DNA of 64,000 nucleotides from a virus, in IMG/VR virus record IMGVR_UViG_3300028027_000047, positions 52,221 to 116,220 of that record. One strand, written 5' to 3'. Below, piece after piece: positions 3,722 to 53,096 of this stretch (position 1 is its first letter; every line of letters starts with the position of its first letter). The notes under the pieces are model-generated. The model was given only the letters and a program-made list of their open reading frames with translations. It was not told where the DNA came from and did no database searches. A program made the position numbers and the translations under genes.

Positions 3722-3732
3722 AAAATTAAATA

Positions 3733-3768: not shown

Positions 3769-3781
3769 GTAGAATGACAAC

Positions 3782-7848: not shown

Positions 7849-7878
7849 TGATATAATTGTATAAAAGAAAGAGAATAA

Positions 7879-11881: not shown

Positions 11882-11908
11882 TCAACTAAAACATGGTATA
11901 ATTTAATT

Positions 11909-40528: not shown

Positions 40529-40797
40529 GTGGAGTAAAGTGGAGCATTGTGGAGAATTTATACTATAGATAGCATATCATATACTATAGTTATATATAGT
40601 TAGATATACATATGTAATGACGCATCCTTAATAGATAACGTATCGTAATGTCTATTCATTTGGGCATACATGCATGCATATTGATCCATATTTGTCAATA
40701 GATTTCATGAGGAATTTTGATCTATTTTGCCAAATTCTCTACACATTTGTCGACATTCTATATGTATAATTAATCATATAGACATATTGTGTAGCAT

Positions 40798-40842
40798 TTT
40801 CAGGGATTTTTGTCAAGGCTTCGTAAATAGAAAATTTGGCCC
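40798..40842 (+). repeat. gapped scaffold repeat copy 1 (TTYCAGG..CGTAA..CCC)
   Basis: CAGG 40801, CGTAA 40822, CCC 40840. Confidence 0.8.
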
Positions 40843-40845
40843 AAG

Positions 40846-40889
40846 CTTCAGGGGTTTTGATCATGTATCGTAAATAGAAAATTTGGCCC
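40846..40889 (+). repeat. gapped scaffold repeat copy 2
   Basis: CAGG 40849, CGTAA 40869, CCC 40887. Confidence 0.8.
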
Positions 40890-41002
40890 ACATGCCCACA
40901 CATACAAAAAATCCACAGGATGTGGATAACCCTGTGGATAATTTGGGCTAGATATGTTTATCTATCTAACCAGGCATTCGATCTCTCATTGTATGTATGC
41001 CT

Positions 41003-41374
41003 CTATTGACTGAATGGGTCTTCTTCTTCCCGCCAACCAAAGATTCGTTCTCTTACTGGTTCCTCCCGTTTTACTTTGTAAGAACGGGACGGCAACTTAA
41101 GATTAACTAAGTTGTTATCTTGCTGATATGCCTTGATACATTCATTCAGTTCCTTGGCTAATGCTAGACCTTCTGTATATGTACCTTGATTTGAATATAC
41201 ATCATACATCTTTGCCTGCTCTGATATTACTGATACAACCATTTCCATAATTCGGTCAATTGTATAGATTGGCTGTTCCGCCAGATATCGACCAAAGATA
41301 GTTGGATTGAACCAATGGTCATCCATTAGATTAACTAATGATTCTGCTACTTTGATTTCTTGTGTTTTACTCAT
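41003..41374 (-). CDS. hypothetical early protein
   Basis: 123-aa ORF. Confidence 0.7.
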   Translation of the reverse strand: MSKTQEIKVAESLVNLMDDHWFNPTIFGRYLAEQPIYTIDRIMEMVVSVISEQAKMYDVYSNQGTYTEGLALAKELNECIKAYQQDNNLVNLKLPSRSYKVKREEPVRERIFGWREEEDPFSQ

Positions 41375-41408
41375 TCGTCCGCCTTCCGCCTAACTGTCAA
41401 TTGTACCA

Positions 41409-41451
41409 AAAATAAGAGAGGAGGTCAAGGACCAACGAAGCCCCGACCTCC
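41409..41451 (-). terminator. terminator-like hairpin with anti-leader loop UUCGUUG
   Basis: GGAGGTCGGGGC-TTCGTTG-GTCCTTGACCTCC followed by TCTCTTATTTTT on the minus strand. Confidence 0.65.
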
Positions 41452-41461
41452 ACCCCTGGAA

Positions 41462-41611
41462 TTACTTAGCCTTATTGCTTGGTGTTTCTGCAGTAAATGT
41501 AACGCCCTTGGCTACAGCTTCCGCTAGAGCTACCTTGGCTGCTCCTGAGAAACGACCACGTACACCGACTGTAATGCCTTGCTGCTTTAGATATTCACGC
41601 TTTGTTGTCAT
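41462..41611 (-). CDS. Lsr2-like DNA-binding domain protein (49 aa)
   Basis: MTTKREYLKQQGITVGVRGRFSGAAKVALAEA, RGR AT-hook; read manually. Confidence 0.7.
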   Translation of the reverse strand: MTTKREYLKQQGITVGVRGRFSGAAKVALAEAVAKGVTFTAETPSNKAK

Positions 41612-41652
41612 TTGAATCCCCTTTCAAGAGATGTTTTATTTAGTATATCAGT

Positions 41653-41698
41653 TTTCAGGGGTATTGTAAATACCCCTCGTAAGACAAAATTTTTGCCC
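41653..41698 (+). repeat. gapped scaffold repeat copy 3
   Basis: CAGG 41656, CGTAA 41678, CCC 41696. Confidence 0.8.
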
Positions 41699-41831
41699 CT
41701 ACGAAAGATCTGCTTGTTCAATACGATCTTTAATTAATTTAGCAATGATGTTATGGGCCTCAATATTTTCTGTTTCGGATCCACCCCACAAAAGCTTTTG
41801 TGCTGTATTTAATTGATCATTCAGGTAGTTG

Positions 41832-42149
41832 TCACTCATCTTCATCTTCGTCTTCTTCCTCTTCCTCAAACATTGTGTCTACAATGTATTCACGATTCAT
41901 CATCCATTCAAGTACATCGTCCTGATGTTGTTCCGCCCCGTACTCTAGAGAGAAGCCCTGGCCCGCCTCCACGGCCTCGCAGAGGTGCCCCCACATCTCG
42001 TCTATGGTGCAGTTCTGCTTGTAGGTCTCATCCTCAAAGATGTTGTTAATTGTCGACCACGTCCACAGCCATACTAGTGACAGCCCTAGGTCCGTAGTGT
42101 CTAGAATCTTTAAACATTCGTTTAGTTTATCTTTGTCTTCAGGCTTCAT
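41832..42149 (-). CDS. acidic hypothetical early protein
   Basis: 105-aa ORF with acidic tail. Confidence 0.7.
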   Translation of the reverse strand: MKPEDKDKLNECLKILDTTDLGLSLVWLWTWSTINNIFEDETYKQNCTIDEMWGHLCEAVEAGQGFSLEYGAEQHQDDVLEWMMNREYIVDTMFEEEEEDEDEDE

Positions 42150-42415
42150 AGTGTACGTGCTCCAATCGCAAATGATAATTGATAAGTTAATTGATACAGT
42201 TCGACTAGCATATCTAGGCGACCTTCACATTCTGTACGGACCATAGAGTCCATTGCCTCTTCTGATATCTCTTCTTGTTCTATTGCACTTGCTAGGTCCT
42301 GCTCAGCAATGAGCATTAGATTCTTTAGTTCTCCGTGCATAATGTCAAGGCCCGATACTCCAGCGTTGACCATACGTTGCAAATGGGGCGGGAGCCCAAT
42401 ATCTTCTGCATTCAT
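42146..42415 (-). CDS. hypothetical early protein
   Basis: AACGAAAGGG leader. Confidence 0.75.
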   Translation of the reverse strand: MNAEDIGLPPHLQRMVNAGVSGLDIMHGELKNLMLIAEQDLASAIEQEEISEEAMDSMVRTECEGRLDMLVELYQLTYQLSFAIGARTL

Positions 42416-42416
42416 T

Positions 42417-42596
42417 TTATACCCTTTCGTTAGTAGAATTCATTATATCAGTAGCCACTGACAATAAATGCCTGGTTGCTTCAATTTGTCCTGGGATATC
42501 AATTACATTGATAGATTCAGGATTCATTTCTAAATCTTGTTCAAGACTAATTAAATGAAGTTTCATATACTCCATAAACTGTGATGACTTAGTCAT
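42417..42596 (-). CDS. small early protein (59 aa)
   Basis: MTKSSQFMEYMKLH, AGGAG RBS; read manually. Confidence 0.55.
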   Translation of the reverse strand: MTKSSQFMEYMKLHLISLEQDLEMNPESINVIDIPGQIEATRHLLSVATDIMNSTNERV

Positions 42597-42656
42597 AGTA
42601 ATATTCTCCTGTCTCTCTATTGAAGTATCTTACCATAGAGCACTGACAAGTAAAAA

Positions 42657-42701
42657 TTCCAGGGACATCTGAACACTCCCAGTAATGCTGACATTTAGCC
42701 C
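42657..42701 (+). repeat. gapped scaffold repeat copy 4 (AGTAA variant)
   Basis: CAGG 42660, AGTAA 42681, CCC 42699. Confidence 0.65.
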
Positions 42702-42704
42702 CCA

Positions 42705-42881
42705 TTAGTCAAAGTACCCTTCTGCCCATAGGCCTTGCAGGAAATCATTTGCTTTCAACAAACCTTCAACTAAAGGGTCTTTGTCTACTTGCTCAACATC
42801 TGATTTCATAATATAAAAAAGCTTTGCATCGTGTATAGCATTAGACATCTGATCGATATCTTCTTTTGTGTAGCCTAACAT
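42705..42881 (-). CDS. small early protein
   Basis: MLGYTKEDI after GGAGG. Confidence 0.65.
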   Translation of the reverse strand: MLGYTKEDIDQMSNAIHDAKLFYIMKSDVEQVDKDPLVEGLLKANDFLQGLWAEGYFD

Positions 42882-43051
42882 TATGCCTCCTCTAATTCCC
42901 AAGACGTATCGGGCCAACCTAAATCATATTTGATAATGCTTTCAACTTGGCCAAGGTCGTCAAGATGTCCATTGATTTTCTCAATTGCTTCTTCTTCGCT
43001 ATTAGCGCCAACGGCGCCGTGTAATTTAATTACGAAGTTATAGTATGTCAT
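42881..43051 (-). CDS. small early protein (56 aa)
   Basis: MTYYNFVIKL..ANSEEEAIEK, read manually; coupled at both ends. Confidence 0.6.
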   Translation of the reverse strand: MTYYNFVIKLHGAVGANSEEEAIEKINGHLDDLGQVESIIKYDLGWPDTSWELEEA

Positions 43052-43284
43052 TCTGCGTTCTCATCCCATTGTAGGTAGTAATTATCTGTTGGACTTAAAT
43101 CGTGAAACTGATTGAACCTGCCTTTTAGATAATTGCTGTTAGACATATCGGCAACACACCAATCGGCATATAGTTGCCCTTCATCTAAATTAGAGTTCAT
43201 CCAATCTTCAACGAGTTGTTCTCCAATTTCAGAGAAGATTGCGTCAATCAACATTTCATTTTCATTTTCTAAGAAACTAGACAT
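43048..43284 (-). CDS. acidic early protein
   Basis: 78-aa ORF. Confidence 0.7.
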   Translation of the reverse strand: MSSFLENENEMLIDAIFSEIGEQLVEDWMNSNLDEGQLYADWCVADMSNSNYLKGRFNQFHDLSPTDNYYLQWDENAE

Positions 43285-44068
43285 TTAGTGCCTCTTCCTG
43301 TGTGTAGGTTTTCAAAGGTAATAATACCATATGGGTCTGACATTCTTTCATAGCCACTTCATCCTGCCAAGAGCCCTCATTGCATTCTGAGCAGAATTCA
43401 CCGCAGTCATTCTCGCAATAGTCAATACAATCAAAAGACTGGCAAGCATAGCAACGGTTCTCATATGCCAATAGTTCTTTTACTTCACCACGGACAATCT
43501 CATATTCCCCACCCCAACCTGTTTCTTCCTCAAACTCTAATGTGAGCAGGCAGTTCGGAACAAGATTACTTAGTTTAGTTAAGATAGTTACAGCAGGTGA
43601 CCAAGCAGTCTCATACTTATATACAAGCCAGTTGTCATCACCTTCTGATTTGTATTCAAGTAATTCTGTATTAGAATACTTTTCCTCATCAGATACGGCT
43701 ACATCCCACTTAGTTCCCCAATTAGAGTTATTCCACGAATACCAATCCTTCTGAGTCTTAGCAAACTCAACAGACTTGCGGAACCAATCAGGGTCATTCT
43801 TGATATCTATGTCACCACGATTAGGTTGGCAGGCATATTCTTCATCAGTAATACCTTCATCCTTATATGAGTGGATATTAAAGAAAGCGAATACAGGATT
43901 ATTATATTCAACTAATTTAATTTTGGTGGGGAAACCCATAGATGAAATATCACCCATACCATATGTCTCTTGTGCTAATGTAAATGGAGCATTCAATCTA
44001 TCTTTAATCATATCTACCTCAGACTTAGGTCCTTGGATAGTTAATGTGTTGTAACACCAATTTGGCAT
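43277..44068 (-). CDS. DUF1281/YubB-like (Api92-type ferredoxin-like domain) protein
   Basis: MPNWCYNTL, WYSWN..NWGTKWD, YETAWSP. Confidence 0.8.
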   Translation of the reverse strand: MPNWCYNTLTIQGPKSEVDMIKDRLNAPFTLAQETYGMGDISSMGFPTKIKLVEYNNPVFAFFNIHSYKDEGITDEEYACQPNRGDIDIKNDPDWFRKSVEFAKTQKDWYSWNNSNWGTKWDVAVSDEEKYSNTELLEYKSEGDDNWLVYKYETAWSPAVTILTKLSNLVPNCLLTLEFEEETGWGGEYEIVRGEVKELLAYENRCYACQSFDCIDYCENDCGEFCSECNEGSWQDEVAMKECQTHMVLLPLKTYTQEEALNV

Positions 44069-44181
44069 TTTATATCCTTTCGTTGATATGTTCCAATTAT
44101 ACAATGGACCACTGACATTTGGAATAGATTTTGCCTGTGATACAGGCCACATTATTCAGCTTTGTGGTCAAGATCACAAAT

Positions 44182-44240
44182 TTTCAGGAGTTTTGCTATT
44201 GACCTCGTAAAAGAGATATGTTACCCTCGCCCTTGCGGGC
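44182..44240 (+). repeat. gapped scaffold repeat copy 5
   Basis: CAGG 44185, CGTAA 44206, CCC 44224, GCGGGC 44235. Confidence 0.85.
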
Positions 44241-44400
44241 AAAAAATTCCCCCTAGGCTCAGAGTTGAAGCTGACTAGGGGGTAATGAATATGGCTGCTG
44301 ATTTCCAACGAAAGAAATAAACCGCTTTACTTAGCGCCTGGCCCGTAGACTAGTTAGGCGCACCATTTCATTTCTGTATTAAAACCAGGACCAAGGTCCT
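44241..44400 (-). ncRNA. putative structured small RNA antisense to the shared early-gene leader
   Basis: TGGTATAAT promoter (44415-44407); 5' AGGAC-CUUG-GUCCU hairpin; multi-stem core with loop UUUCGUUG; terminator CCCCUAG...CUAGGGG followed by U6; no ORF in the supplied track. Confidence 0.7.
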
Positions 44401-44407
44401 AGATTAA

Positions 44408-44776
44408 TTATACCACACTTAGTTGACTACAATATTTAGCAACAAATGCCTCAAGGCTTGTACTGAATACTACAGTCTGCAGGTCTTCTTCCATTAATGT
44501 GAAAGTTTTATTCTTCCAATCAATAATAGGGACCTTGTGCTCATTGTCGGCCAATTCATTAACGCTAATTCCCCAGCCTGTTTCGCTAGCCCATTCGTCA
44601 CCAATCATTTGACTAATAGTAATACGTGTTGCATATGCCTCGTCATTCCAACGTGGATGTGCAATCTGCACGGCGTCCGCTAAGTTCTCTAGCATTCGGT
44701 GCCCCGCCCAGTGACCGTATAGAAATACAATATTTTCCTTGGAATCTCTGAATCCAAAGTTTGCTCTGTCGCCCAT
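44408..44776 (-). CDS. hypothetical early protein
   Basis: MGDRANF...LYGHWAG. Confidence 0.75.
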   Translation of the reverse strand: MGDRANFGFRDSKENIVFLYGHWAGHRMLENLADAVQIAHPRWNDEAYATRITISQMIGDEWASETGWGISVNELADNEHKVPIIDWKNKTFTLMEEDLQTVVFSTSLEAFVAKYCSQLSVV

Positions 44777-44777
44777 T

Positions 44778-44966
44778 TTATTCCGCCTTTGTTAGTTGGT
44801 CTTGCTCGTAGTTTAGTAATTGTACCATTTCTTCGGCCCAGTCCACAAGAGATTCGCCCTGTGAATTTTTATGATGTCCACAAAAATAAAGAGACATTGC
44901 ATCTTTCTTTGCTTCCCACATAGCTTGGGCTGCACATTGATCACACTTAAGCCATTCAGCCATCAC
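44778..44966 (-). CDS. small zinc-finger protein
   Basis: CDQC...FCGHH. Confidence 0.7.
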   Translation of the reverse strand: MMAEWLKCDQCAAQAMWEAKKDAMSLYFCGHHKNSQGESLVDWAEEMVQLLNYEQDQLTKAE

Positions 44967-45109
44967 AGTGTTCCACCTTCAATCATTTCTGAAAGACGGT
45001 CAAGGATCCAAGTATCGATGTCAGCGATATCAATCTCTGATAACTTTTCCATCATCTCTTCACGAGCAAACTTATACCCGTCTTGAAATCCATCTTTATA
45101 GTCTGACAT
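44963..45109 (-). CDS. small acidic protein (48 aa)
   Basis: MSDYKDGFQDGYKF, AGGAG RBS; read manually. Confidence 0.6.
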   Translation of the reverse strand: MSDYKDGFQDGYKFAREEMMEKLSEIDIADIDTWILDRLSEMIEGGTL

Positions 45110-45117
45110 TTTATCTC

Positions 45118-45321
45118 CTAGTATCCCGTCGCTTCTTTGTCTGACCAGTATGATTCTTTTAAATTATACTTATCACGAATACGACTAACTTTCTCAATAC
45201 TACCAGTTCCAACATTGAATGTCAACGGTGGCATAAATTCAGGGTCAAGCCCAGTAATTTGTGCATCCCAATAAGCCATCTCAAGAGATAGCCTATCGGG
45301 AGCGGTCAACTCAAAGTACAT
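45118..45321 (-). CDS. hypothetical early protein
   Basis: 67-aa ORF. Confidence 0.7.
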   Translation of the reverse strand: MYFELTAPDRLSLEMAYWDAQITGLDPEFMPPLTFNVGTGSIEKVSRIRDKYNLKESYWSDKEATGY

Positions 45322-45977
45322 TAGTTCTCACGCACATTACATACTTCTTGGTCATTGATTTCAATGTTACCGTTATGTGAATCAGCAAAGATTGCATCTG
45401 TAATTTCTGACTCAAGGTCTAAGTCATAATCGTTTTCAAGAATGTTATATGAATATGTTCCGCTAACTTCAATAGATGCAGACCATTCAACTTCTTTAAT
45501 AAGTTCAATACCAAGCGCCTCAGCGATTTCACGCAATGTGTCTTGGTCTTGTGAGTCTGCATATGCTTCGCAGATAATTTCTTTAGCAGAATCAATCTTG
45601 CTATTTAGAACGCCGACAGTCTTCTGAGATTGGCGTCCATTGTGTAGGTCCCACTCAAGACTTGTAATCTTGTCAGTTGCATATTCTGCATCTGAGAATC
45701 CGCGGATAACTTTGTAGGTTACCAATAGATTAGAGTTATATGACTCAGGGATTTGTGTTGTTGTTGGTTCCATTTTTTCCTCTTTCGTTTGGGTTATAGG
45801 AGCAATTGTAGCATTGACCACTGACACCAAGGTGGTCTTTCGACCACACGGGCACGTGAGTTCTGTCACACCTGATGGAAATCCAAACCCGTCAGATGAT
45901 GTTAATTCAATTAGGCAGTCACATTCATCTGGGTCACAGACAAATGTATATTTACTTGATACTAGTTCGTTGGTCAT
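45321..45977 (-). CDS. early protein with N-terminal zinc ribbon; internal in-frame start at 45773
   Basis: leaderless ATG at 45977 below the promoter at 46001; internal promoter at 45821 plus AACGAAAGAGG leader before ATG at 45773. Confidence 0.7.
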   Translation of the reverse strand: MTNELVSSKYTFVCDPDECDCLIELTSSDGFGFPSGVTELTCPCGRKTTLVSVVNATIAPITQTKEEKMEPTTTQIPESYNSNLLVTYKVIRGFSDAEYATDKITSLEWDLHNGRQSQKTVGVLNSKIDSAKEIICEAYADSQDQDTLREIAEALGIELIKEVEWSASIEVSGTYSYNILENDYDLDLESEITDAIFADSHNGNIEINDQEVCNVREN

Positions 45978-46017
45978 GATGAGAATTATACACGAGCCCA
46001 CTGACATTTACAATAGC

Positions 46018-46076
46018 TTTCAGGGCTTTTTTTATGTGACACGTAACACACTTTTAATTCCCTTAATATTGCGGGC
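46018..46076 (+). repeat. gapped scaffold repeat copy 6
   Basis: CAGG 46021, CGTAA 46042, CCC 46060, GCGGGC 46071. Confidence 0.85.
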
Positions 46077-46082
46077 GCTTTG

Positions 46083-46156
46083 CGATCTGTAACGGACTTG
46101 AACCGTCGACCTCTACCGTGACAGGGTAGCGCTCTAACCAACTGAGCTAACAGACC
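46083..46156 (-). tRNA. tRNA-Asp(GTC)
   Basis: cloverleaf on the minus strand; CTACC-ctGTCac-GGTAG. Confidence 0.92.
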
Positions 46157-46168
46157 AAGAAAAATTGT

Positions 46169-46196
46169 GAGCAGTTTTAAATCTTGCTCAGGATTT
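46169..46196 (-). ncRNA. compact pseudoknot motif, copy 2 of 3
   Basis: AAATC-CTGAGCA-A-GATTT-AAAAC-TGCTC between the DUF932 stop and tRNA-Asp. Confidence 0.55.
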
Positions 46197-46211
46197 TTAT
46201 TTATTTTTTTT

Positions 46212-47216
46212 TTAGAAAGTTGCAACCATTCGATACAACTTATTTTTTTCTGCGGTTAGAACTGGGTCAAACCCTGATGCACCCGCCATAAGTGTTTCGC
46301 CATTGCCACGACCTGAACGATAATAATCAAGGCGCTCAGTTAGTGCATTGAACGCACCCCACTTTGTTCCCTTGATTGTAGCGTTAGTAGGTGAGTTATG
46401 ATAAAGGTCATCAAGCAGAACAACTTTGTTCTCCCACTTTTTGATTGCACCCTTAGCATCTTTTTCTGGCTTAGGATAGATTGTCTGAATCAACTTAGAG
46501 AATTCAGCATCGGTGATTGCTTGTGAGTAAAGTGCTTTTGCTTGAACTTCGAATTCATCGAAATATCCAAGAGCAAGCCCAAGAGTTTCACGAGCAACTT
46601 GAATACGACCTTCAACAGATTGCGTGTGGCGAATCTTGAAAGATTGCTTAGCATTCTTCATTGCAAGGTTTAGCGTATTTTGGCATACAACACGAACAGG
46701 TGTAACGGCTGCCTGAACAGCAACAGAACCATCGTGTGATGTCCATACGATTAGATATAACTTTGTCTCATCATTGGCGCCTTGTGGGTCAAGAACCATT
46801 GTGCGAGGAATATCAACAGTGCCGAATACAACTTTACCCTTTTTTAATGAGCCAGCAGATTCCCAACGGCAGTCAGCGTTAGCATCGTGAATTGCATCAG
46901 CGAATGCAAATAGTTCCTCATTCTGCACAGGCTTGTAACGCTTGCCAACAGTAGCAAGAACATCAGTTCCGCCGTTGAATGGGTTATCACGAATGACAAG
47001 AGATGCAGTTGAAACATCATTCCAAGATTCTGGAATGTGTTCGGTGATTGGAGATAAGCGAACATTCCAATTTGCTAACTTTGCCTCTTCAAGCATTGTT
47101 GCGGTTGTAACTTCTTCATCTTGTGTGAAGATGCGATTTGCTAGATTGTGCCAAGCAGGTGCGCCACGGAGAGCGAAAGCAACTTCGCCATTTTCCATTT
47201 CTAGATTGTGAGCCAT
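46212..47216 (-). CDS. DUF932/DUF945-family protein
   Basis: MAHNLE..PAWHNL, YKPVQNEE.F, SHDGS, PVRVVCQNTL, IRHT, WGAFNALTE. Confidence 0.88.
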   Translation of the reverse strand: MAHNLEMENGEVAFALRGAPAWHNLANRIFTQDEEVTTATMLEEAKLANWNVRLSPITEHIPESWNDVSTASLVIRDNPFNGGTDVLATVGKRYKPVQNEELFAFADAIHDANADCRWESAGSLKKGKVVFGTVDIPRTMVLDPQGANDETKLYLIVWTSHDGSVAVQAAVTPVRVVCQNTLNLAMKNAKQSFKIRHTQSVEGRIQVARETLGLALGYFDEFEVQAKALYSQAITDAEFSKLIQTIYPKPEKDAKGAIKKWENKVVLLDDLYHNSPTNATIKGTKWGAFNALTERLDYYRSGRGNGETLMAGASGFDPVLTAEKNKLYRMVATF

Positions 47217-47326
47217 ATATTTTTTACCTTTCGTTTGATTAGTTGTAAGTATAACAGGTGGCACTGACATTGTCTAGATTAGATAGTCATTTGTCCGAAT
47301 TGTGCGGTGTGATCATTCTCACAAAC

Positions 47327-47384
47327 TTTCAGGGTTATCCACAAGCACTCGTAAACCTGTGGATAACCCCCCAAAAGCGGGGGC
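47327..47384 (+). repeat. gapped scaffold repeat copy 7 (spacers hold two DnaA boxes)
   Basis: CAGG 47330, CGTAA 47350, CCC 47368, GGGGGC 47379; TTATCCACA 47335, TGTGGATAA 47358. Confidence 0.85.
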
Positions 47385-47395
47385 CGAGCTGGAGA

Positions 47396-47656
47396 TTAAA
47401 TCCCCACCTCTACCTTTTTAGCATTGCTAATTAGATTTTTATTAAACTCAACTGTGGTCTCATCAAGAAACATCGCAGTTGTTTTTTTCTTTTTTACATT
47501 ATCAAAAACATAAGCGTTAATCTTTCCGCTAAAGTTTCTGATGTTGCTGAATACTAATTCAGTTAAGTATTCTTTATCAACACCTTGATCTGAATAAATC
47601 GTGATGTCATTTGCTTTGTTTGCATCGTAGATTTCTACTCTGAAACGATTTGCCAT
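47396..47656 (-). CDS. hypothetical early protein
   Basis: 86-aa ORF, AACAAAGG leader. Confidence 0.7.
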   Translation of the reverse strand: MANRFRVEIYDANKANDITIYSDQGVDKEYLTELVFSNIRNFSGKINAYVFDNVKKKKTTAMFLDETTVEFNKNLISNAKKVEVGI

Positions 47657-47688
47657 TGTATTACCTTTGTTAGTAGTTCCCCGAAGGA

Positions 47689-47715
47689 GAGCAGTTTGGC
47701 GACTTACTCAGGTCG
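47689..47715 (-). ncRNA. compact pseudoknot motif, copy 3 of 3
   Basis: CGAC-CTGAGTA-A-GTCG-CCAAAC-TGCTC. Confidence 0.55.
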
Positions 47716-47779
47716 TTCGCAATTTAGCGTTATGCGAGAACGATTGGGTTCAGGACTTTAGTTCTGCCCCCCAAATTAT

Positions 47780-48202
47780 TTAGAGATAACGAGCAACCGC
47801 TTGATAAGTTGATGTGGAAACTGTTTCCTCATCTGTCATCTTTAGAATACGGATTGCGTTTTCCATCTCCTCTTTCATCTCACGATAAGTGTGCTGATGA
47901 ATTACCTCAAAGTCCTTTTCAGGTTCTGTTGGGAAAGAAGTTTCCTCTGTGATGATGTCAAAATCAACATTGAGTGTCTTGTTCCAAGAGCGATAGTTTG
48001 TGCGAAGGTTCTCTGCTTTTGAGAAATTAGCAATAGCCCACTTGCCGATTTCTTTTTGCCAAGCCTTGTAAGCCTTTTGATACTTTGCTTCGTTTGCTTC
48101 TTGTGCCTGATAGTCTTTAGTTAGTTGTGCTAACTTAGTTTCTAGTGCCTTGATTACCTTTGGTGTTGCGATTTTTACTGAGATTGCTTTTCCTCTAGCC
48201 AT
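47780..48202 (-). CDS. hypothetical early protein
   Basis: 140-aa ORF, CCAACGAAAGAGG leader. Confidence 0.78.
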   Translation of the reverse strand: MARGKAISVKIATPKVIKALETKLAQLTKDYQAQEANEAKYQKAYKAWQKEIGKWAIANFSKAENLRTNYRSWNKTLNVDFDIITEETSFPTEPEKDFEVIHQHTYREMKEEMENAIRILKMTDEETVSTSTYQAVARYL

Positions 48203-48372
48203 TTATTTTCCTCTTTCGTTGGTTGGTTGTTGTTAGTTGTAGTATAGCAGGGGGGTCTGACATTTCCCCCGAAGGGGGGAGAGTTCTTACTTACGACATT
48301 GGACTAGATACTCTCCTAAACTGTCCCTGTTTCGTGGCTTAGCACCCGATTATGGTGTATGCCTCCGTCTTA

Positions 48373-48552
48373 TTAGCCAAGTAGTGTCTTGGCTGATACT
48401 GAAGTCCAGCGAGTTTCCCTGCTAGGTAGTTCCAGTAGCACACGCACCGAGCCAGATGCCTGTGGGTGTATCTCTTTGATAACACCTGTCTTTTTTGACT
48501 TTAGGCTGGTGAATAAATCGCCGACCTGATAGAGTTTTCCTTCTATTGTCAT
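48373..48552 (-). CDS. small SH3/KOW-like beta-barrel protein (59 aa)
   Basis: YQVGDLFT..KTGVIKEI...VRVLL; own promoter at 48596; read manually. Confidence 0.6.
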   Translation of the reverse strand: MTIEGKLYQVGDLFTSLKSKKTGVIKEIHPQASGSVRVLLELPSRETRWTSVSAKTLLG

Positions 48553-48646
48553 TTTTGCCTCTTTTCTTTGTTAGGTAGTATTGTAGCATTGGGGTCTGAC
48601 ATTAGTCTAGCCCTATCTCATTATGTGAGAATGTTATTGTGTGACC

Positions 48647-48910
48647 TTAGTCACTTTCTTGTAGCCAAGCGTGTAAGTGATGCTGTTCTACTATTGCGTG
48701 TGCGGGTGCAAACTTATCTCCTCGATAAGATACGCCTTCAGGCATTTCGATCAATTTATCATACTCATCTGCCCAGTATGCGTCAATAGCCTCGATGCAA
48801 GGTTGCACCATAGAAAGTGGAACGGGTGGATAGTGATTACCCTGTAAGTGAATAGAGATACCTTGCTCTAATCCTAAGTCTGATAAATCTAACGCTGTTG
48901 TGTATCCCAT
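48647..48910 (-). CDS. hypothetical early protein (paralog of 33045..33317)
   Basis: HLQGNHYPPVP...CIEAI...HHLHAWL. Confidence 0.75.
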   Translation of the reverse strand: MGYTTALDLSDLGLEQGISIHLQGNHYPPVPLSMVQPCIEAIDAYWADEYDKLIEMPEGVSYRGDKFAPAHAIVEQHHLHAWLQESD

Positions 48911-49116
48911 TAGTTAGCCACCTTTAGAATTGCGTATGAGCCGTTTTCGTTGATGTGGTCAATTACTGGCTGAATTGCAGATACCAATAAATCTTTTAGC
49001 ATTGACTCTAGCATAGCAATTTGTGATTGTTCATCTAATTGTAAGAATTGTTTTGCGATAGGATGTGTTTCGTCAAACTCGGTTACGAATTTGAGTGAGT
49101 GTTCTACTGATGTCAT
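48910..49116 (-). CDS. hypothetical early protein
   Basis: AACGAAAGG leader. Confidence 0.72.
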   Translation of the reverse strand: MTSVEHSLKFVTEFDETHPIAKQFLQLDEQSQIAMLESMLKDLLVSAIQPVIDHINENGSYAILKVAN

Positions 49117-49216
49117 TTGTTACCTTTCGTTGTTGGATAAGAGTATTATAGCATTGGCCACTGACATTACCTAATCCATTATGGGCGTGTCGCAGCTTTT
49201 GTGATAATACTCACAA

Positions 49217-49276
49217 TTCCAGGGGTTGTGGATAACCCCCGTAAGCCTGTGGATAACCCCCCACAATATTGCGGGC
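49217..49276 (+). repeat. gapped scaffold repeat copy 8 (spacers hold two DnaA boxes)
   Basis: CAGG 49220, CGTAA 49240, CCC 49258, GCGGGC 49271; TGTGGATAA 49227 and 49248. Confidence 0.85.
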
Positions 49277-49305
49277 CAACTTGACTTTGTCAAGTCGACA
49301 CGCCG

Positions 49306-49449
49306 TTACCAACGATTAGGCAAATCATCTTTTCCGTCATTGTCGTTATCAAATTTTGCACCATTCCACATGTACACTGCTAGCACAATTGGTGAGAATA
49401 AGAATGCAATTAATAAAATTCCAATTAAGGATCCGAGAATGTCATACAT
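49306..49449 (-). CDS. small membrane protein (47 aa)
   Basis: MYDILGSLIGILLIAFLFSPIVLAVY, read manually. Confidence 0.55.
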   Translation of the reverse strand: MYDILGSLIGILLIAFLFSPIVLAVYMWNGAKFDNDNDGKDDLPNRW

Positions 49450-50168
49450 CATTTTTTACTCGCAGAAAATCTAATATCCGCTTTACCGTATACGCATAGG
49501 CCACAAGATACGCAGGCGGACCCATTGCTAGAGATAAGCGGAATACTCTTCATATTCTCAGGACACTTAGCGCCAGGCTTGCCAGTCAATTCTTTCATTG
49601 TGTTTTCCGTTGCAGAGAATGTCTTTCCTAGGTATGCAAGGCGGACCTTAGAATTAGTTTTCAAATCGAATGCTATTTCTTTATTCTCATCATCGGTAGA
49701 ATAGTATAAAGATAGATTAGATACATCCTTAAGAATAAGCGCTGCAGACTTTACTCGTGTATAAACCCAAAATTGAACATCGGGATGATTAGCAATAACA
49801 GTCTTCCAGGCATAAGTATAAACATCATTAAAAAAATCTCCGTCCCAATGGATACGGAATAACTTAGGCGCCTCTTTCTTTTCACAGTCAGCAATAAATT
49901 CAACAATCATCTCATCCAATAGAATAAGCATTGTGTCCATATCTGCATTACGTAGGAGCTCCCAATTGTGTAACAAATTAACTTTAACGCTAGGGAATAC
50001 CTTTTCTAATTTTCCTGCATAGCAGACACTCTCGCAAATAGACGTTGCGCCAGGACAAGAATAATTCTTTCCAGCAGGTAATCCGAACGTGTTGGCAATT
50101 GCTGCCTGCTTTCCATTTTTTGTGACAAGGTTAGCGACCTTTCTATCATTAGAACGTTTTAATTTCAT
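49449..50168 (-). CDS. GP88-like (radical-SAM-like Cys motif) phage protein
   Basis: FGLPAG..SCPGA..C...CYA, FRIHWDGDF, FWVYTR; leaderless start MKLKRS below the promoter at 50192. Confidence 0.78.
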   Translation of the reverse strand: MKLKRSNDRKVANLVTKNGKQAAIANTFGLPAGKNYSCPGATSICESVCYAGKLEKVFPSVKVNLLHNWELLRNADMDTMLILLDEMIVEFIADCEKKEAPKLFRIHWDGDFFNDVYTYAWKTVIANHPDVQFWVYTRVKSAALILKDVSNLSLYYSTDDENKEIAFDLKTNSKVRLAYLGKTFSATENTMKELTGKPGAKCPENMKSIPLISSNGSACVSCGLCVYGKADIRFSASKK

Positions 50169-50199
50169 AGGGGTAATTATAGCGGTGGCCTCTGACATA

Positions 50200-50409
50200 T
50201 TAGTAATCCTCATCCATACCGTGGCCTGCAGACGCTAGGGCGTCAGAATCAGACCAGCCAATAGTTTCAAAGAATTCCATTTCCTCAGACGCATAGCATT
50301 CAGCGCAGATATAATCATCGCCATAAATTTCATATTCTGAATCATTGTCAAAAGTTTCTTGAGCGCCACAAATTTCATAGTTCAAGCAAGATACTGTAAA
50401 TAGTTCCAT
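50200..50409 (-). CDS. acidic zinc-finger early protein
   Basis: C..C...CAEC; DSDALASAGHGMDEDY tail. Confidence 0.72.
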   Translation of the reverse strand: MELFTVSCLNYEICGAQETFDNDSEYEIYGDDYICAECYASEEMEFFETIGWSDSDALASAGHGMDEDY

Positions 50410-50485
50410 AGTGGACCTCTTTCGTTGGTAGATACGGAAATTATAGCAGAATGGACTGACATATCAAAATCGACACGCCGTAAAA

Positions 50486-50543
50486 TTTCAGGCAATTCGG
50501 ACATGTGTCGTAATTCACATGAAGCCCCCACAAAAGAGCGGGC
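50486..50543 (+). repeat. gapped scaffold repeat copy 9
   Basis: CAGG 50489, CGTAA 50509, CCC 50527, GCGGGC 50538. Confidence 0.85.
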
Positions 50544-50560
50544 AGCTGCATATTTATGCG

Positions 50561-50692
50561 CTACTCTGAATATTTATTTTTATGTTTGATCTTGCGTGTG
50601 TATTTTTTTTTATTGCGAACAGGTTGCGCCGCATTACTGCGGCGCAATTCCTGAATGCGTTTTACTTTATCTTGAAGTGAATTTAGGAACAT
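50561..50692 (-). CDS. small very basic protein (43 aa)
   Basis: IQELRRSNAAQPVRNKKKYTRKIKHK, read manually. Confidence 0.55.
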   Translation of the reverse strand: MFLNSLQDKVKRIQELRRSNAAQPVRNKKKYTRKIKHKNKYSE

Positions 50693-50858
50693 TGTAATTA
50701 CTCGCTTCGTGAAATCTTGCTACATCAAATCGCTCATTATCTTTCGCAAACATTTCAGCGAAATCATTTACGATTTTAGAAAATAAAGCGGGGTGCGTTT
50801 TATCGCTTGCATACTTTAGAATTTCTGCCGTTGCTACATAGTCTTTTCGTGTCATCAT
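50667..50858 (-). CDS. hypothetical early protein
   Basis: MTRKDYVATAEIL...DNERFD..RF. Confidence 0.75.
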   Translation of the reverse strand: MMTRKDYVATAEILKYASDKTHPALFSKIVNDFAEMFAKDNERFDVARFHEASNYNVPKFTSR

Positions 50859-51061
50859 TTTGTTACGACCTTTCGTCCTTCACGATAGAAAACTCGTGTG
50901 TGCATTTTGCCAGTTGGCGTCATTAGATTTACAGTTGAGTATTCGTTAGCAAATCCCCAATCGGTGAAAAGGAAAAAGTTTTCCCACGCACCAAATTCGT
51001 TTTCGTATTCTGCTGACCAATGCGGAGCATTTGAGTCATAAGCGCAAGTCAATTTATACAT
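50855..51061 (-). CDS. hypothetical early protein
   Basis: AACGAAAGGG leader. Confidence 0.72.
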   Translation of the reverse strand: MYKLTCAYDSNAPHWSAEYENEFGAWENFFLFTDWGFANEYSTVNLMTPTGKMHTRVFYREGRKVVTK

Positions 51062-51178
51062 TAGTTTCCCTTTCGTTAGTTACGCATTTACATTGTGTTA
51101 TTTGTATTGTATCAGTTAGCACTGACACAACGGCAAGGGTATCGCAATTATCGCAAATCCACATCCCCGCTATTTGGC

Positions 51179-51304
51179 TCATTCAAAAGCCCCCTCATTC
51201 AGTAGCCCTAATTCAATGTTGAACATTTCATCGGGTGTTGCTTCGGATAAATCTACCCAGCCCGCACCTTCATCATCCATACGGAAAATCTCAATGTATC
51301 CCAT
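51179..51304 (-). CDS. small acidic protein (41 aa)
   Basis: MGYIEIFRMDDEGAGW, read manually. Confidence 0.5.
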   Translation of the reverse strand: MGYIEIFRMDDEGAGWVDLSEATPDEMFNIELGLLNEGAFE

Positions 51305-51306
51305 TA

Positions 51307-51474
51307 TTATTCACACTCGCATTTCTTATCGTAGTCAAATTCGCAATAGTAGCAACCCATTTGCTCGCCGTGTTCTTTACACACATAAACAAATTGGCTT
51401 TCATCACAATGAAATTTCATTTCATCTTTTATGAAATAGAATTCGGTTTCGTCAATGTATTTTGTATCTAACAT
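51307..51474 (-). CDS. small Cys-rich protein (55 aa)
   Basis: read manually; coupled to the upstream stop. Confidence 0.55.
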   Translation of the reverse strand: MLDTKYIDETEFYFIKDEMKFHCDESQFVYVCKEHGEQMGCYYCEFDYDKKCECE

Positions 51475-51674
51475 TAGTCACCTACCTTTACCGCTAAATA
51501 ACGATAAGTATCGCTAAAAGAATTAGAGGGGCGAACCTGAACACGATAAGTATCGCAATCGGCATACCAAACCTTAGAGGTTTTTTCTGCGTCAATTATT
51601 TCGCCCTTTACTGAGCGAGAGTAATACATTTTCCCAATAAGTAGGGACTCTACGGAATAAACATTTGCTGACAT
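51474..51674 (-). CDS. hypothetical early protein
   Basis: AACGAAAGG leader. Confidence 0.72.
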   Translation of the reverse strand: MSANVYSVESLLIGKMYYSRSVKGEIIDAEKTSKVWYADCDTYRVQVRPSNSFSDTYRYLAVKVGD

Positions 51675-51793
51675 TAGTTGTCACCTTTCGTTGTTGTTGA
51701 TACGGACATTGTAGCAGATAGCACTGACAAGGCTTCTGCCTTACTTGCTTCACGGGTGGCGGTGATGTGCGCCTTGAATTCATCTAGGTTCAT
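51674..51793 (-). CDS. small early protein (39 aa)
   Basis: MNLDEFKAHI; own promoter at 51843 and AACGAAAGAAGG leader. Confidence 0.55.
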   Translation of the reverse strand: MNLDEFKAHITATREASKAEALSVLSATMSVSTTTKGDN

Positions 51794-51955
51794 TACTGAC
51801 CTTCTTTCGTTGTTGTTATAGTAGACATTATACATTAGGGCACTGACATTTCTCTACCTACTAGCCAGTAAGTCCACATAGTAAGACGCTCAACCTATGT
51901 GATACTCATCACACAAATATGTCCGATATGTCTGTCAAATCGACACGCCGTAGAA

Positions 51956-52013
51956 TTCCAGGGCTTCTGTAACAATCTCGTAACGACACGCCCGACCCCG
52001 TGCCTTTGCGGGC
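51956..52013 (+). repeat. gapped scaffold repeat copy 10
   Basis: CAGG 51959, CGTAA 51979, CCC 51997, GCGGGC 52008. Confidence 0.85.
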
Positions 52014-52042
52014 CAGATTGACATTGTCAAGCCGACACGCCG

Positions 52043-52237
52043 CTATTCTTCTTCTAATTCTGCTAAGTAGTCCTCGTGCTCCACTAGTCCAATAGCAAAC
52101 GCAACAGGATCACAGCACTCTAGTATCTCGGCGGGTGTGAAGGTAGAGTAACCAATCTTTACTGTAGGATAAACATCATTTAGTAAATCTATAAAGCTTT
52201 CTTTTATCTCTATGTCTTTTTCTAATTGTGATTTCAT
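52043..52237 (-). CDS. acidic early protein
   Basis: 64-aa ORF. Confidence 0.7.
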   Translation of the reverse strand: MKSQLEKDIEIKESFIDLLNDVYPTVKIGYSTFTPAEILECCDPVAFAIGLVEHEDYLAELEEE

Positions 52238-52502
52238 TAGTTGAGTCCATTCTCTCTAAGGTCTTTTATTACTAGGCGAAGCATTAGCAGGGCGGGAATA
52301 CCGATACCTAATTGCACTAAGGTAGTTAGTAGGCGAGTAGTAGTCATTACTTATTCTTCTTTCTCTTGTAAATCTTATAGGCGGTTACTAGTAAGGCGGT
52401 GATGATTATAGTGTGCCAAGGTAAGTAGATAGCCCCTAAGAAACTATCAAACTCTAAGCCGTATTCGTTTAGTGCTAATTCTAATCCGTTGCTAATCATT
52501 TA

Positions 52503-52685
52503 TTATGCCTCCCAAGTAAGTGTGAATAGTTTTGCTAATTCCTCATCATCAACATCATCAAAATCATCAACGGGAGGTTGTTCCTCATCTACCTCATCAA
52601 GGTAGGCGTATGCGTCTGCGACATCTGATTGAATAGAGGCGTATTTATCTATTGAGTTAGTTTGGTATGAGTATGCGTATGACAT
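52503..52685 (-). CDS. acidic early protein
   Basis: 60-aa ORF. Confidence 0.65.
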   Translation of the reverse strand: MSYAYSYQTNSIDKYASIQSDVADAYAYLDEVDEEQPPVDDFDDVDDEELAKLFTLTWEA

Positions 52686-52834
52686 TACATTGAAACCTTT
52701 CGTAGGTGTGCTACTACATTACTAGAAATTGTCTGTAGTTCTTTTACTGTCTTGTTCATTTCTTCTGCGCTAGTAGCGGTGAAATCCACGCCTAGTAGTT
52801 GAGCGCCGTCCCATAGTGAGTAAGTGATAGTCAT
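52685..52834 (-). CDS. small early protein (49 aa)
   Basis: MTITYSLWDG; promoter at 52886 and AACGAAAG leader. Confidence 0.6.
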   Translation of the reverse strand: MTITYSLWDGAQLLGVDFTATSAEEMNKTVKELQTISSNVVAHLRKVSM

Positions 52835-52940
52835 TATCTGTTCTTCTTTCGTTAGTAGTTATAGTAGGAATTGTAGCGTATCGGGCTGACATTATCAACA
52901 CGACACGCCGTAGAGCGGAGAGCCTAGCGTGTGAGTTGCC

Positions 52941-53096
52941 TCACAGGCAGTTGATACACTCGCAACCCTTAGAGCGGATAAGGTAGGCAAGGATTTCCTT
53001 GCGTGTGTAAGCGTTTAGCCCATAAGAGGATTTTACGCCACCATTGTGGAAATCGTGCACGATAGTGCTAAATAGTGTTTCGGTTAGTTGAGTCAT
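52941..53096 (-). CDS. first gene of the early block (51 aa)
   Basis: MTQLTETLFS...CECINCL; promoter at 53148 and AACGAAAGGGG leader. Confidence 0.6.
   Translation of the reverse strand: MTQLTETLFSTIVHDFHNGGVKSSYGLNAYTRKEILAYLIRSKGCECINCL

Follow-up and report, generated by a model that had tools for sequence, protein, structure and literature searches.

A co-oriented multi-box intergenic element in the early gene block of an actinobacterial phage, possibly an operator or boundary platform

The genes between 40.9 and 53.2 kb of the window (the whole 64,000-nucleotide stretch of DNA analysed) are on the minus strand, and the repeated element that lies between them is therefore to be read as the reverse complement. 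On the coding strand its consensus, derived from 176 unique copies, is [GCCCGCA-loop-]TGnGGGC-N12-tTTACGa-N10-AAAAnCCCTGRAAtTT, with the boxes referred to from left to right as A (not always present), B, C and D. The ten copies in the window and the features next to them are as follows, with E values from the sequence model described below where available.

40530..40795, minus strand: conserved gene-free gap downstream of a tandem pair of elements
40796..40846, minus strand: element 1, downstream member of the tandem pair (E 1.5e-11), with boxes GGG (40842-40840), TTACG and CCCTGAAAA, no A box, and a TTGACA -35-like hexamer between the C and D boxes
40846..40893, minus strand: element 2, upstream tandem member, 48 nt from element 1 (E 1.9e-9), directly after a DnaA-box hairpin terminator
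40911..40941, minus strand: canonical terminator (hairpin and T-run) closing the minus-strand block, just upstream of the tandem pair
41650..41702, minus strand: element 3 (E 6e-7), its D box within the 17-nt spacer of the promoter TTTACA-N17-TGATATACT, which serves a 49-aa ORF (41611-41462)
42653..42705, minus strand: element 4, a variant with TTACT for TTACG (E 7e-3), beginning 4 nt past the upstream ORF stop; PafBC-type promoter from 42648
44178..44240, minus strand: element 5, with A/B hairpin (E 4e-11), then two Crp-type palindromes (44178, 44151) and a PafBC-type promoter (44117)
46017..46076, minus strand: element 6 (pattern and relatives-only model), its A box beginning 6 nt after tRNA-Asp (46156-46082), with a Crp-type palindrome centred on TTACG and a PafBC-type promoter (46006) 18 nt after CCTG
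47323..47384, minus strand: element 7, with A/B hairpin (E 2e-8) and an inverted DnaA-box pair across its two spacers, then a Crp-type palindrome (47323) and the DUF932 gene promoter (47269)
49213..49276, minus strand: element 8, with A/B hairpin (pattern and relatives-only model) and a direct DnaA-box pair across its two spacers, then a Crp-type palindrome (49215) and a promoter (49166)
50482..50543, minus strand: element 9, with A/B hairpin (pattern and relatives-only model) and a Crp-type palindrome centred on TTACG, followed by a promoter (50461)
51954..52013, minus strand: element 10, with A/B hairpin (pattern and relatives-only model) and GGCGTGTCG in the first spacer, then a Crp-type palindrome (51913) and a promoter (51848)

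The stem of the terminator at 40911..40941 contains two perfect DnaA boxes 3 bp apart (40941/40929). The gap at 40530..40795 contains a PafBC-like promoter (AATGTCGACAAATGTGTAGAGAAT), a lone TTACGA and three CTCCAC units, and is a candidate terminus or origin region.

The pattern CAGG-N14-20-CGTAA-N13-CCC has nine exact matches in the window, all on the plus strand (40801, 40849, 41656, 44185, 46021, 47330, 49220, 50489 and 51959), where dinucleotide shuffles predict 0.02 by chance; in the tenth copy, 42660, AGTAA replaces CGTAA. The full 116,220-bp genome contains the same nine exact matches only, and the reversed control pattern gave no match across it. An independent sequence-only model, trained on 70 copies from other contigs, returned precisely the ten window copies, all on the minus strand (E = 1.5e-11 to 7e-3), and the best match beyond them had E = 0.25. 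Ten of ten copies are intergenic. The original prediction of ten gapped elements, all intergenic, in one orientation and with none outside 40.8-52 kb, is borne out by these searches, and the motif is not comparably frequent in shuffled sequence.

The deep core of the element is TTTACGA and CCCTGRAA separated by 16-17 nt, with the GGG box exactly 13 nt upstream. A 16-nt spacer divides TTACG from CCTG in 67 copies and a 17-nt spacer in 107, and GGG was found in 194 of 212 copies in a search that did not require it. Read on the plus strand, the window copies have a CAGG-to-CGTAA spacer of 16-18 nt, and in 10/10 CCC begins 18 nt after the first base of CGTAA. GCGGGC (GGGGGC at 47330) is present in the six right-hand copies, ending at 44240, 46076, 47384, 49276, 50543 and 52013. 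Both the invariant distance of 18 and the GCGGGC of the right-hand copies agree with what had been predicted.

The source phage is uncultured, actinobacterial, 116 kb in size and apparently lytic. More than 117 viral contigs were matched, and at least 57 related contigs carry two or more co-oriented copies. In each of six roughly complete genomes of ~97-116 kb, a set that includes four of the five relatives estimated to be at least 90% complete, all copies lie in one block (~10 kb) and in one orientation. Streptomyces phage Karimac, whose early-block proteins shared with this phage are about 50% identical, has the TTTACGA/CCCGGA core as a tandem pair with the core spacing of 16 nt kept. The fixed core spacing is thus conserved in related phages, and the copies are confined to one block here and in relatives. 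Only scattered single matches in unrelated taxa were found in 596 Gb of prokaryote genomes, and a host genomic motif was rejected.

Synteny links the element block to the direct terminal repeat (11-12.6 kb) of cultured relatives, which share the same leftward array of small genes and carry DUF932 and GP88 homologues at 1.2-5.6 kb, twice per record. Injection pause, packaging and nick sites are candidate explanations because the elements are restricted to a block syntenic with the relatives' long terminal repeat. A polar signal for DNA transactions at a genome end might be a stepwise-entry pause or stop, like the T5 first-step-transfer stop, a terminase or end-processing site, or a one-strand nick site, and would account for the single shared orientation of the copies. 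An end region that lacks genes and is rich in iterons adjoins the conserved tandem pair both in this phage family and in Karimac, where the pair lies ~600 bp from the physical end, within the long terminal repeat, and the DnaA-box pairs, including that with 3 bp between boxes at 40941/40929, recall the T5 injection-stop region (10.1101/866236). However, the promoter link, the Crp-type sites at a fixed 10-nt offset and the occasional -35 hexamer would be needless for translocation or cutting, a terminase would have no use for nine or ten places to cut or package within 11 kb, and the sub-motifs have no genome-wide polarity. Further, the 'terminal repeat' of the contig is merely a 120-bp assembly overlap, and a genome-end signal is considered quite improbable.

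Every element separates two transcription units, lying past the end of the first and ahead of the promoter of the second, a feature missed by the original prediction. It starts 4-30 nt past a stop codon or tRNA, or past a separate terminator, and the next promoter, in most cases PafBC-type (TGTCAG-N10-TAnnnT), is 14-110 nt downstream at a distance that varies among copies. Two copies (40849/40801 and 44185) are behind canonical terminators, and action on DNA is therefore likelier than action in the upstream RNA.

Also overlooked was that the GCGGGC box pairs with the GGG box, forming one arm of an RNA-type hairpin on the coding strand. An inverted copy of the GGG box gives this A/B hairpin in a quarter to half of copies, and it reaches at least 5 bp in 40/176. 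Compensatory changes (CCCGC/GCGGG, CCCCTA/TAGGGG, CCCCC/GGGGG), 16 G.T against 3 A.C pairs, better folding of the sense than of the antisense strand (p = 2e-14) and the position of elements right after stop codons or tRNA would all fit an element that acts in RNA between early cistrons, where it would terminate transcripts, stabilise their 3' ends or direct their processing in the manner of the RNase III sites of the T7 early region. Such a role is nevertheless very unlikely, as the hairpin of at least 5 bp is confined to those 40 copies and lacks a U tract, the invariant TTACG and CCCTG boxes neither pair nor fold, the two copies noted above follow terminators that already look efficient, the sites for DnaA, Crp and sigma in the spacers are of DNA type, and an Rfam search gave no match. 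No covariation was detected between the GGG and CCC sides, and the folding energy of the GGG-to-CCTG core is barely lower than that of the control (z = -0.9 vs -0.7); linear recognition by a protein is favoured for these reasons. A structured RNA and an intrinsic terminator were rejected as the identity of the element. With no conserved RNA fold in the core, the large, oriented protein-DNA contact that had been proposed is supported as the simplest reading, as is the earlier view that the element is not a canonical sigma-A promoter, intrinsic terminator, CRISPR array or att site.

The spacers had been described as free in sequence. This holds between paralogous copies but not between orthologous copies in related phages, which conserve the spacers and the sites embedded in them, namely DnaA boxes, Crp-type palindromes, -35 hexamers or the GGCGTGTCG motif. 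Orthologue-conserved DnaA boxes occupy the slots of 47330 and 49220, orthologues of 46021 and 50489 keep a Crp-type palindrome whose centre is TTACG, and the second slot of the tandem and 41656 types retains TTGACA or TTTACA. A Crp-type palindrome also stands at a fixed offset from CCTG in 43/174 copies, its start being exactly 10 nt past the first C.

Occupancy of this kind could also be expected of a promoter class for host RNA polymerase retargeted by an unrecognised factor, whether a sigma (a divergent one of the phage or an alternative one of the host), a PafBC/MotA-like sigma adaptor or a protein delivered by the virion. In that case TTTACG would be a -35-like box and CCTGAA a -10-like (or '-26'-like) box, and the embedded DnaA and Crp-type sites and the downstream palindrome would be operators covering the -35 box, spacer and +1, which are typical repressor positions. 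The two TTACG-CCTG spacer lengths match classical promoter spacing, all copies point with the genes and lie upstream of them, often after a hairpin or terminator, and tandem copies exist. In the 41656 and 40801 types the D box lies at about -25 to -18 of the overlapping sigma-A promoters, near the PafBC -26 element. However, CCTGAA lacks the A at -11 and is a misfit to sigma-A, and TAnnnT/GAnnnT occurs at a fixed offset past the D box in only 66/174 copies, mostly as part of the palindrome; a general sigma-A promoter was ruled against. The genome yielded no sigma region 2, no member of the sigma-70/ECF family and no T7-type polymerase; the sole match was a weak region-4-like helix-turn-helix in a 48-aa ORF, and no DxDxD polymerase motif was seen outside DnaE. 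The class is missing upstream of all other phage genes, and the same genes already have PafBC-type promoters at the downstream distances given above. A retargeted promoter is considered unlikely. The suggested virion-delivered transcription factor, taken as a polymerase, was not upheld, as neither an RNA polymerase nor a sigma factor was found in searches of the genome and its 3,892-aa tape measure protein.

Recombination sites or linkers that shuffle early-gene cassettes, another earlier suggestion, are extremely doubtful. Similarity in the 47330 group does end at the 5' edge of the A box, and the element, promoter and downstream gene travel together. However, in a first-pass map nearly all gene boundaries show breaks, without enrichment at elements, the breaks being equally frequent at element-free boundaries (41.2, 42.1, 48.2, 48.6, 48.9, 49.1, 50.1, 50.9 and 51.7 kb), and a recombination hotspot was rejected. 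No recombinase was found among the block ORFs scanned, and homology-driven exchange would need longer and less dispersed shared sequence than the boxes offer.

The interpretation preferred here from sequence comparison, though tentatively, casts the element as an operator or boundary platform, polar and built of several boxes, for a phage-specific protein. It would be an orientation-locked docking site, or frame, acting at the DNA level and bound by a sequence-specific protein or complex particular to this phage family, and the putative binder would be phage-encoded or virion-borne. Each frame marks the head of an early transcription unit, with the A/B hairpin, where present, closing the upstream transcript. 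The slots between boxes and the position just 3' of the frame hold DnaA, Crp-type and sigma-A -35 sites for host proteins, with which, and with RNA polymerase, the bound factor would compete or cooperate. Its effect would be regulatory, the factor acting with polarity, in the way of an operator or insulator, to coordinate and probably to shut off or gate transcription in the early (terminal-repeat-like) block, and the doubled copy would guard the block end. Counted against this interpretation are a Pfam scan of 20 block ORFs that revealed nothing DNA-binding, the strict co-orientation and 16-17 nt box spacing, which are also expected of an unusual-holoenzyme promoter, and the variable distance (18 to about 110 nt) to the downstream promoter, relative to which helical phasing is only weakly suggested.

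The stoperators of cluster A mycobacteriophages (the gp71 sites of L5) are many asymmetric sites in short intergenic regions, oriented with transcription, and in L5 they serve a single phage protein both as promoter operators and as polar blocks. P1 C1 operators are likewise dispersed and asymmetric. In both cases the sites are single 13-17-bp boxes spread genome-wide in temperate phages with a known repressor. The element resembles them in its many asymmetric intergenic copies, all oriented with transcription, but is longer (45-60 bp), combines three or four boxes at fixed distances with host-factor sites in the slots between them, and is confined to one ~11 kb block of an apparently lytic phage, with a binder that is putative. 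REP/BIME sequences of enterobacteria are intergenic composites at operon ends that combine an RNA hairpin with protein-binding DNA sites in conserved linkers. The element is similarly composite and placed, with a hairpin and DNA-level sites, but shares no sequence or spacing with them; REP/BIME are host-chromosomal, consist of palindromic units and are not promoter-linked, whereas the element is phage-borne and promoter-linked.

The left terminal repeat of T5 contains repeat regions and an injection-stop (iss) locus (Davison, bioRxiv 10.1101/866236). The T5 repeats form three large untranslated clusters with long inverted repeats and a 52-bp spacer, and their function is itself a hypothesis (10.1101/866236). 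Common to both phages are conserved non-coding repeats of fixed spacing among early genes in a long terminal repeat (T5) or terminal-repeat-like block (here), paired consensus DnaA boxes, some 3 bp apart, and non-coding DNA that is better conserved than the adjoining ORFs. The T5 repeats differ in that they do not punctuate every operon, and there is no sequence similarity.

PafBC 'sigma adaptation' acts at hybrid promoters of the form tGTCgg-N10-tAnnnT (PMC8635444), and the neighbouring block promoters match this consensus exactly in spacing. The element itself has, like sigma-70-family and PafBC promoters, two boxes 16-17 nt apart, co-oriented with genes, one of them near -26 of overlapping promoters. 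Unlike in those promoters, a -10 hexamer at a constant distance is missing from most copies, and no matching sigma or adaptor was found. To our knowledge, the boxes TTTACGA and CCCTGAAA match no familiar sigma consensus. The boxB of lambda nut is GCCCTGAAAAAGGGC; the D box holds the same CCCTGAAA octamer in a similar early intergenic setting. However, the element has no boxA and lacks the complementary 3' arm, so that no boxB hairpin is possible, and the resemblance is best treated as chance.

The pattern CAGG-N14-20-CGTAA-N13-CCC gave nine exact matches in the window, all on the + strand, where 0.02 would be expected by chance from dinucleotide-preserving shuffles. A tenth copy, at 42660, is one base off (AGTAA). 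The full 116,220-bp record contains the identical nine exact matches and none additional, and a reversed control pattern gave 0 matches in that record. A sequence-only model trained on 70 copies from other contigs recovered exactly these ten sites of the window, all on the minus strand, with E values from 1.5e-11 to 7e-3, and the next-best site had E = 0.25. The spacings and positions in the original prediction are correct in the sequence, and the confinement of the element to one region also holds when its frequency is compared with the rest of the genome, as all ten sites are in the early block.

All ten copies, named here by the + strand position of CAGG, are intergenic. The genes of the block (40.9-53.2 kb) are all on the minus strand, and the element should therefore be read as its reverse complement. 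On this coding strand, the consensus of 176 unique copies is [GCCCGCA-loop-]TGnGGGC-N12-tTTACGa-N10-AAAAnCCCTG(A/G)AAtTT, made up of boxes A (GCCCGC), B (TGnGGGC), C (TTTACGA) and D (CCCTG(A/G)AA) and of two inter-box spacers, or slots. A spacer of 17 nt separates TTACG from CCTG in 107 copies, and one of 16 nt does so in 67. GGG is located 13 nt upstream in 194 of the 212 copies found by a search requiring only the TTACG and CCTG boxes. Two copies, 40849 and 40801, form a tandem pair. The spacings of tandem pairs fall into two classes, 47-50 nt and 56-58 nt.

More than 117 contigs in the viral contig collection matched, and in 57 of these there are at least two co-oriented copies. Five related genomes of 97-115 kb have 3-7 exact matches each, all co-oriented and in a single block of 9-11.5 kb, and co-orientation extends to all copies in the 57 multi-copy contigs and in six roughly complete genomes. 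Relatives are 75-88% identical across the block. The spacers had been predicted to be free in sequence; this is true only between paralogues, whereas orthologues conserve the spacers as strongly as the boxes. The cultured-phage collection gave no nucleotide match at megablast level, and no element cluster was seen in Streptomyces phage BillNye. A scan of prokaryote genomes gave at least 120 single matches in unrelated taxa, and among the matches listed none was multi-copy and none actinobacterial. A host regulon motif was rejected because the prokaryote matches listed are scattered and single, and KOPS- or Chi-like genome-wide polar words because enrichment of the sub-motifs is confined to the block. 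No description of the element was found in the literature searched on the boxes and on motifs of BE-cluster terminal repeats.

The start of each element is 4-30 nt past the preceding stop codon or 6 nt past tRNA-Asp, or else the element lies behind a separate hairpin or terminator. A promoter lies 14-110 nt downstream of every element, and a Crp-type site near -71 generally accompanies it. Most of these promoters belong to a second repeat of the block, commoner than the element, which has the form TGTCAG-N10-TAnnnT and whose copies share a downstream leader and ribosome-binding site. The features concerned are:

42463-53153, minus strand: about 20 PafBC-type promoters, TGTCAG(T/A)G-N8-TAnnnT
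53217, 52945, 51913, 49215, 48655, 47323, 45870, 44178 and 44151, minus strand: Crp/GlxR-type palindromes, TGTGA-N6-TCACA

Hybrid promoters of the PafBC/RecA-NDp type have the consensus tGTCgg-N10-tAnnnT with a -26 element (PMC8635444), and the block promoters agree with the published PafBC consensus in sequence and spacing. The early genes of the phage appear to be wired to the host activator of the single-stranded-DNA alarm. The Crp/GlxR-type palindromes are ~71 nt upstream of the inferred PafBC-type starts, the geometry of a class-I activator. Some ten PafBC-type promoters, the tightly packed internal ones, lack an element, indicating that the elements mark the heads of about nine transcription units and not every promoter. 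Distances from element to promoter peak at 18, 28-29, 50, 57-65 and 71-72 nt. Helical phasing between the two, suggestive at ~11 bp, was not significant once orthologues were collapsed and was discarded. The promoter of the 49-aa gene at 41611-41462, when window 41642-41702 is compared with relatives (e.g. contigs L122, L050 and L092), keeps the element in two arrangements, with the D box either inside the promoter spacer or, displaced by about two turns of the helix, 11 nt ahead of the -35 hexamer.

The slots, and the DNA beside the elements, carry sites of several recognisable types:

elements 47330 and 49220: perfect DnaA boxes, TTATCCACA, flanking TTACG, kept in relatives
40941/40929: pair of perfect DnaA boxes, TTATCCACA, 3 bp apart in a terminator stem, kept in relatives
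elements 46021 and 50489: Crp-type palindromes, TGTGA-N6-TCACA, centred on TTACG
element 51959: GGCGTGTCG in the first slot
tandem-pair type and relatives of the 41656 type: TTGACA/TTTACA -35 hexamers in the second slot

The terminator with the DnaA boxes in its stem is a canonical one and precedes the tandem pair. Paired DnaA boxes within elements occur in only 2 of the 10, and the second box flips orientation among aligned related copies, some of which are possibly paralogues. The distance from the first C of CCTG to the start of a Crp-type palindrome is exactly 10 nt in 43 of 174 copies. The 9-mer GGCGTGTCG/CGACACGCC has 8 copies in the 116-kb genome, all in the block (window 49192-53179; for example at 52041, 51992, 51949, 50479 and 49304). 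It includes GACAC, the WhiA-type core. The phage encodes its own WhiB at window ~22529-22702.

The best-supported reading, held tentatively and drawn from sequence comparison, is that the element would be a DNA-level, orientation-locked docking frame for a phage-family-specific protein, most likely a polar operator or insulator of early transcription. The frame sits between early transcription units, shares its DNA with sites of the DnaA, Crp and sigma-A kinds and, once bound, would coordinate or shut off early transcription. As in stoperator arrays, the sites are asymmetric, intergenic and co-oriented with transcription. No candidate for the cognate repressor was found among the block ORFs scanned.

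An RNA-level role is unlikely. GGG does not covary with the CCC of box D at any register, and the folding z-score of the core (-0.9) is hardly lower than that of the control (-0.7). The core is thus neither a structured RNA nor a hairpin, and a conserved GGG-CCC helix was rejected on both counts. The part that does look like RNA is the upstream end of the element, where the A box is an inverted copy of the B box and, where present, forms a hairpin of 5-7 bp with it. This hairpin shows compensatory changes (CCCGC/GCGGG, CCCCTA/TAGGGG and CCCCC/GGGGG), 16 G.T versus 3 A.C pairs, and better folding of the sense than of the antisense strand (p = 2e-14), and is thus of the RNA type, on the coding strand. 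It is the sole part of the element with covariation and is found in only 40 of 176 copies under a strict criterion. The sequence behind it is CAAAATTT or TTATCC rather than a U tract, so that an intrinsic terminator on either strand was rejected, and a terminator scan found none inside any element. Rfam gave no relevant match for the element, and an Rfam-type structured RNA was rejected for this reason together with the lack of core covariation and the control-like folding. The lambda boxB stem-loop is GCCCT-GAAAA-AGGGC, with boxA upstream. The likeness of CCCTGAAA to boxB was dismissed since the 3′ arm is absent, and a lambda-type nut site was rejected because CCCTGAAA is followed by tTTGTGA and not by an AGGGC arm.

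A less probable, though conceivable, alternative is that the element is itself a promoter for a retargeted polymerase, consistent with its 16-17 nt spacing, its strict co-orientation and the order of terminator then element. TTTACG matches 4 of 6 positions of the -35 consensus, and the box 16-17 nt downstream is CCTGAA. A general sigma-A promoter was rejected because CCTGAA does not qualify as a -10 box and only 38% of copies have a -10-like hexamer behind the D box (66 of 174 with [TG]AnnnT at an offset of 11-14 from CCTG). Elements of the 41656 and 40801 types have a separate canonical promoter, TTTACA/TTGACA-N17, built around the D box. A PafBC-type promoter was rejected as well, since the element has no GTC box and that motif is instead 14-110 nt downstream. 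In the phage genome there is no match to the sigma family PF04542 and none to PF00940, the latter being silent in all control genomes too and hence uninformative alone, and no DxDxD motif outside DnaE. Profile searches of the genome found no phage sigma factor or polymerase, although very divergent factors could escape them. A virion RNA polymerase within the 3,892-aa tape measure protein was rejected, as this protein has no DxDxD and its PDB matches are to tape-measure and OmpA-like structures only. A small DNA-binding regulator is a candidate function for one further ORF, which is flanked by a RuvC-like gene on one side and by the genes of the small and large terminase subunits on the other:

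11412-11558, plus strand: 48-aa ORF with a weak sigma-region-4-like helix-turn-helix (TIGR02937, PF08281)

Recombination sites that shuffle early-gene cassettes had also been proposed, and this role is unlikely. Mosaic breakpoints are no commoner at the elements than at other gene boundaries, and no recombinase was found among the block ORFs scanned; attC-like cassette or recombination sites were rejected on these grounds.

Judged on protein similarity only, the cultured phages nearest to this one are Stanwilliamsviridae of Streptomyces. The ~11-kb direct terminal repeat of BE1 phages has 20-25 small leftward genes, one of them lsr2-like (PMC5764925). Homologues of the DUF932 and GP88 genes of the block are in the terminal repeat of the cultured relatives and occur twice per record. 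In Streptomyces phage Karimac (NC_048724) the core has the form TTTACGA-N16-CCGGA and stands as a tandem pair twice, at 598-664 and at 119917-119983, which places the pair ~600 bp from the physical left end and indicates a terminal repeat of ~12.6 kb. From synteny with the repeats of Karimac and the BE1 phages, the block would be the equivalent of a long terminal repeat. One contig of 12.5 kb consists of the block alone. The record is a circular-type assembly, and the IMG/VR 'direct terminal repeat' is an exact overlap:

1-120 and 116101-116220 of the record (window 63881-64000): 120-bp end overlap

This is probably an assembly overlap and not a physical terminal repeat; it looks internally repetitive and may lie within a Gly-rich repeat gene. 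Downstream of the tandem pair is a gap whose conservation in 13 relatives equals that of coding DNA:

40530-40800: gene-free gap with a PafBC-like promoter, one isolated TTACGA, TATAGTATA repeats and CTCCAC three times at ~10 bp pitch

By analogy with the iteron-rich 600 bp at the physical end of Karimac, this gap may be a candidate genome terminus, packaging site or origin. That the elements themselves are DNA-entry or terminus signals is less probable than the retargeted-polymerase reading; the terminal-repeat-like setting and the conserved doubled copy adjoining the end region speak for it. Paired DnaA boxes in conserved repeats, as in the injection-stop signal of T5, are also found here, in two of the ten elements and at 40941/40929.

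Long-terminal-repeat phages (T5, SPO1 and the Streptomyces BE phages) carry host-takeover genes on the repeat DNA. To our knowledge, little has been established beyond E. coli and Bacillus about the reading, timing and silencing of this DNA. A more elaborate reading, which we consider unlikely, is that the frames are cis-sites of a programme for the first minutes of infection. In one version, a virion-delivered or very early factor would dock on TTTACGA-N16/17-CCCTGAAA and retarget the host RNA polymerase, making the element a new sigma-adaptation class of promoter. In the other, the terminal-repeat DNA would enter step by step and the frames would halt or gate this entry, the final stop being the doubled copy together with the DnaA-box hairpin. 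In either version, host DnaA and Crp would report the state of the cell from the slots of the same frame. We know of no such programme described for any phage.

Under the preferred reading as an operator array, the stoperator idea would extend to lytic phages; as a new class of promoter or as a signal that gates DNA entry, the element would bring a mechanism new to the control of early phage genes. The analysis defines a conserved cis-element that heads each early transcription unit in an abundant family of phages of freshwater actinobacteria, interleaved with DnaA- and Crp-type sites and beside promoters of the PafBC (single-stranded-DNA alarm) type. As the core is kept in the cultured phage Karimac (host S. 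griseus), its binder and function are open to bench work.

Nearly all intergenic regions of the Karimac repeat (positions 1-12000) contain, in this order, a UUCG-tetraloop hairpin, GCCGCCCCGG (sometimes inverted), AAAAGATCTTG, which contains a palindrome, and TTGnnn-N18-TAGACT. A related hairpin with a GCCGCCCCGG-nn-AAAAGATCTTG module is thus present at most promoters of this repeat other than that of the tandem pair. No description of the hairpin and the GCCGCCCCGG/AAAAGATCTTG module was found in the literature searched. In five promoters, counted by eye, the GC box of the GCCGCCCCGG-nn-AAAAGATCTTG module is 47-48 nt from the -10.
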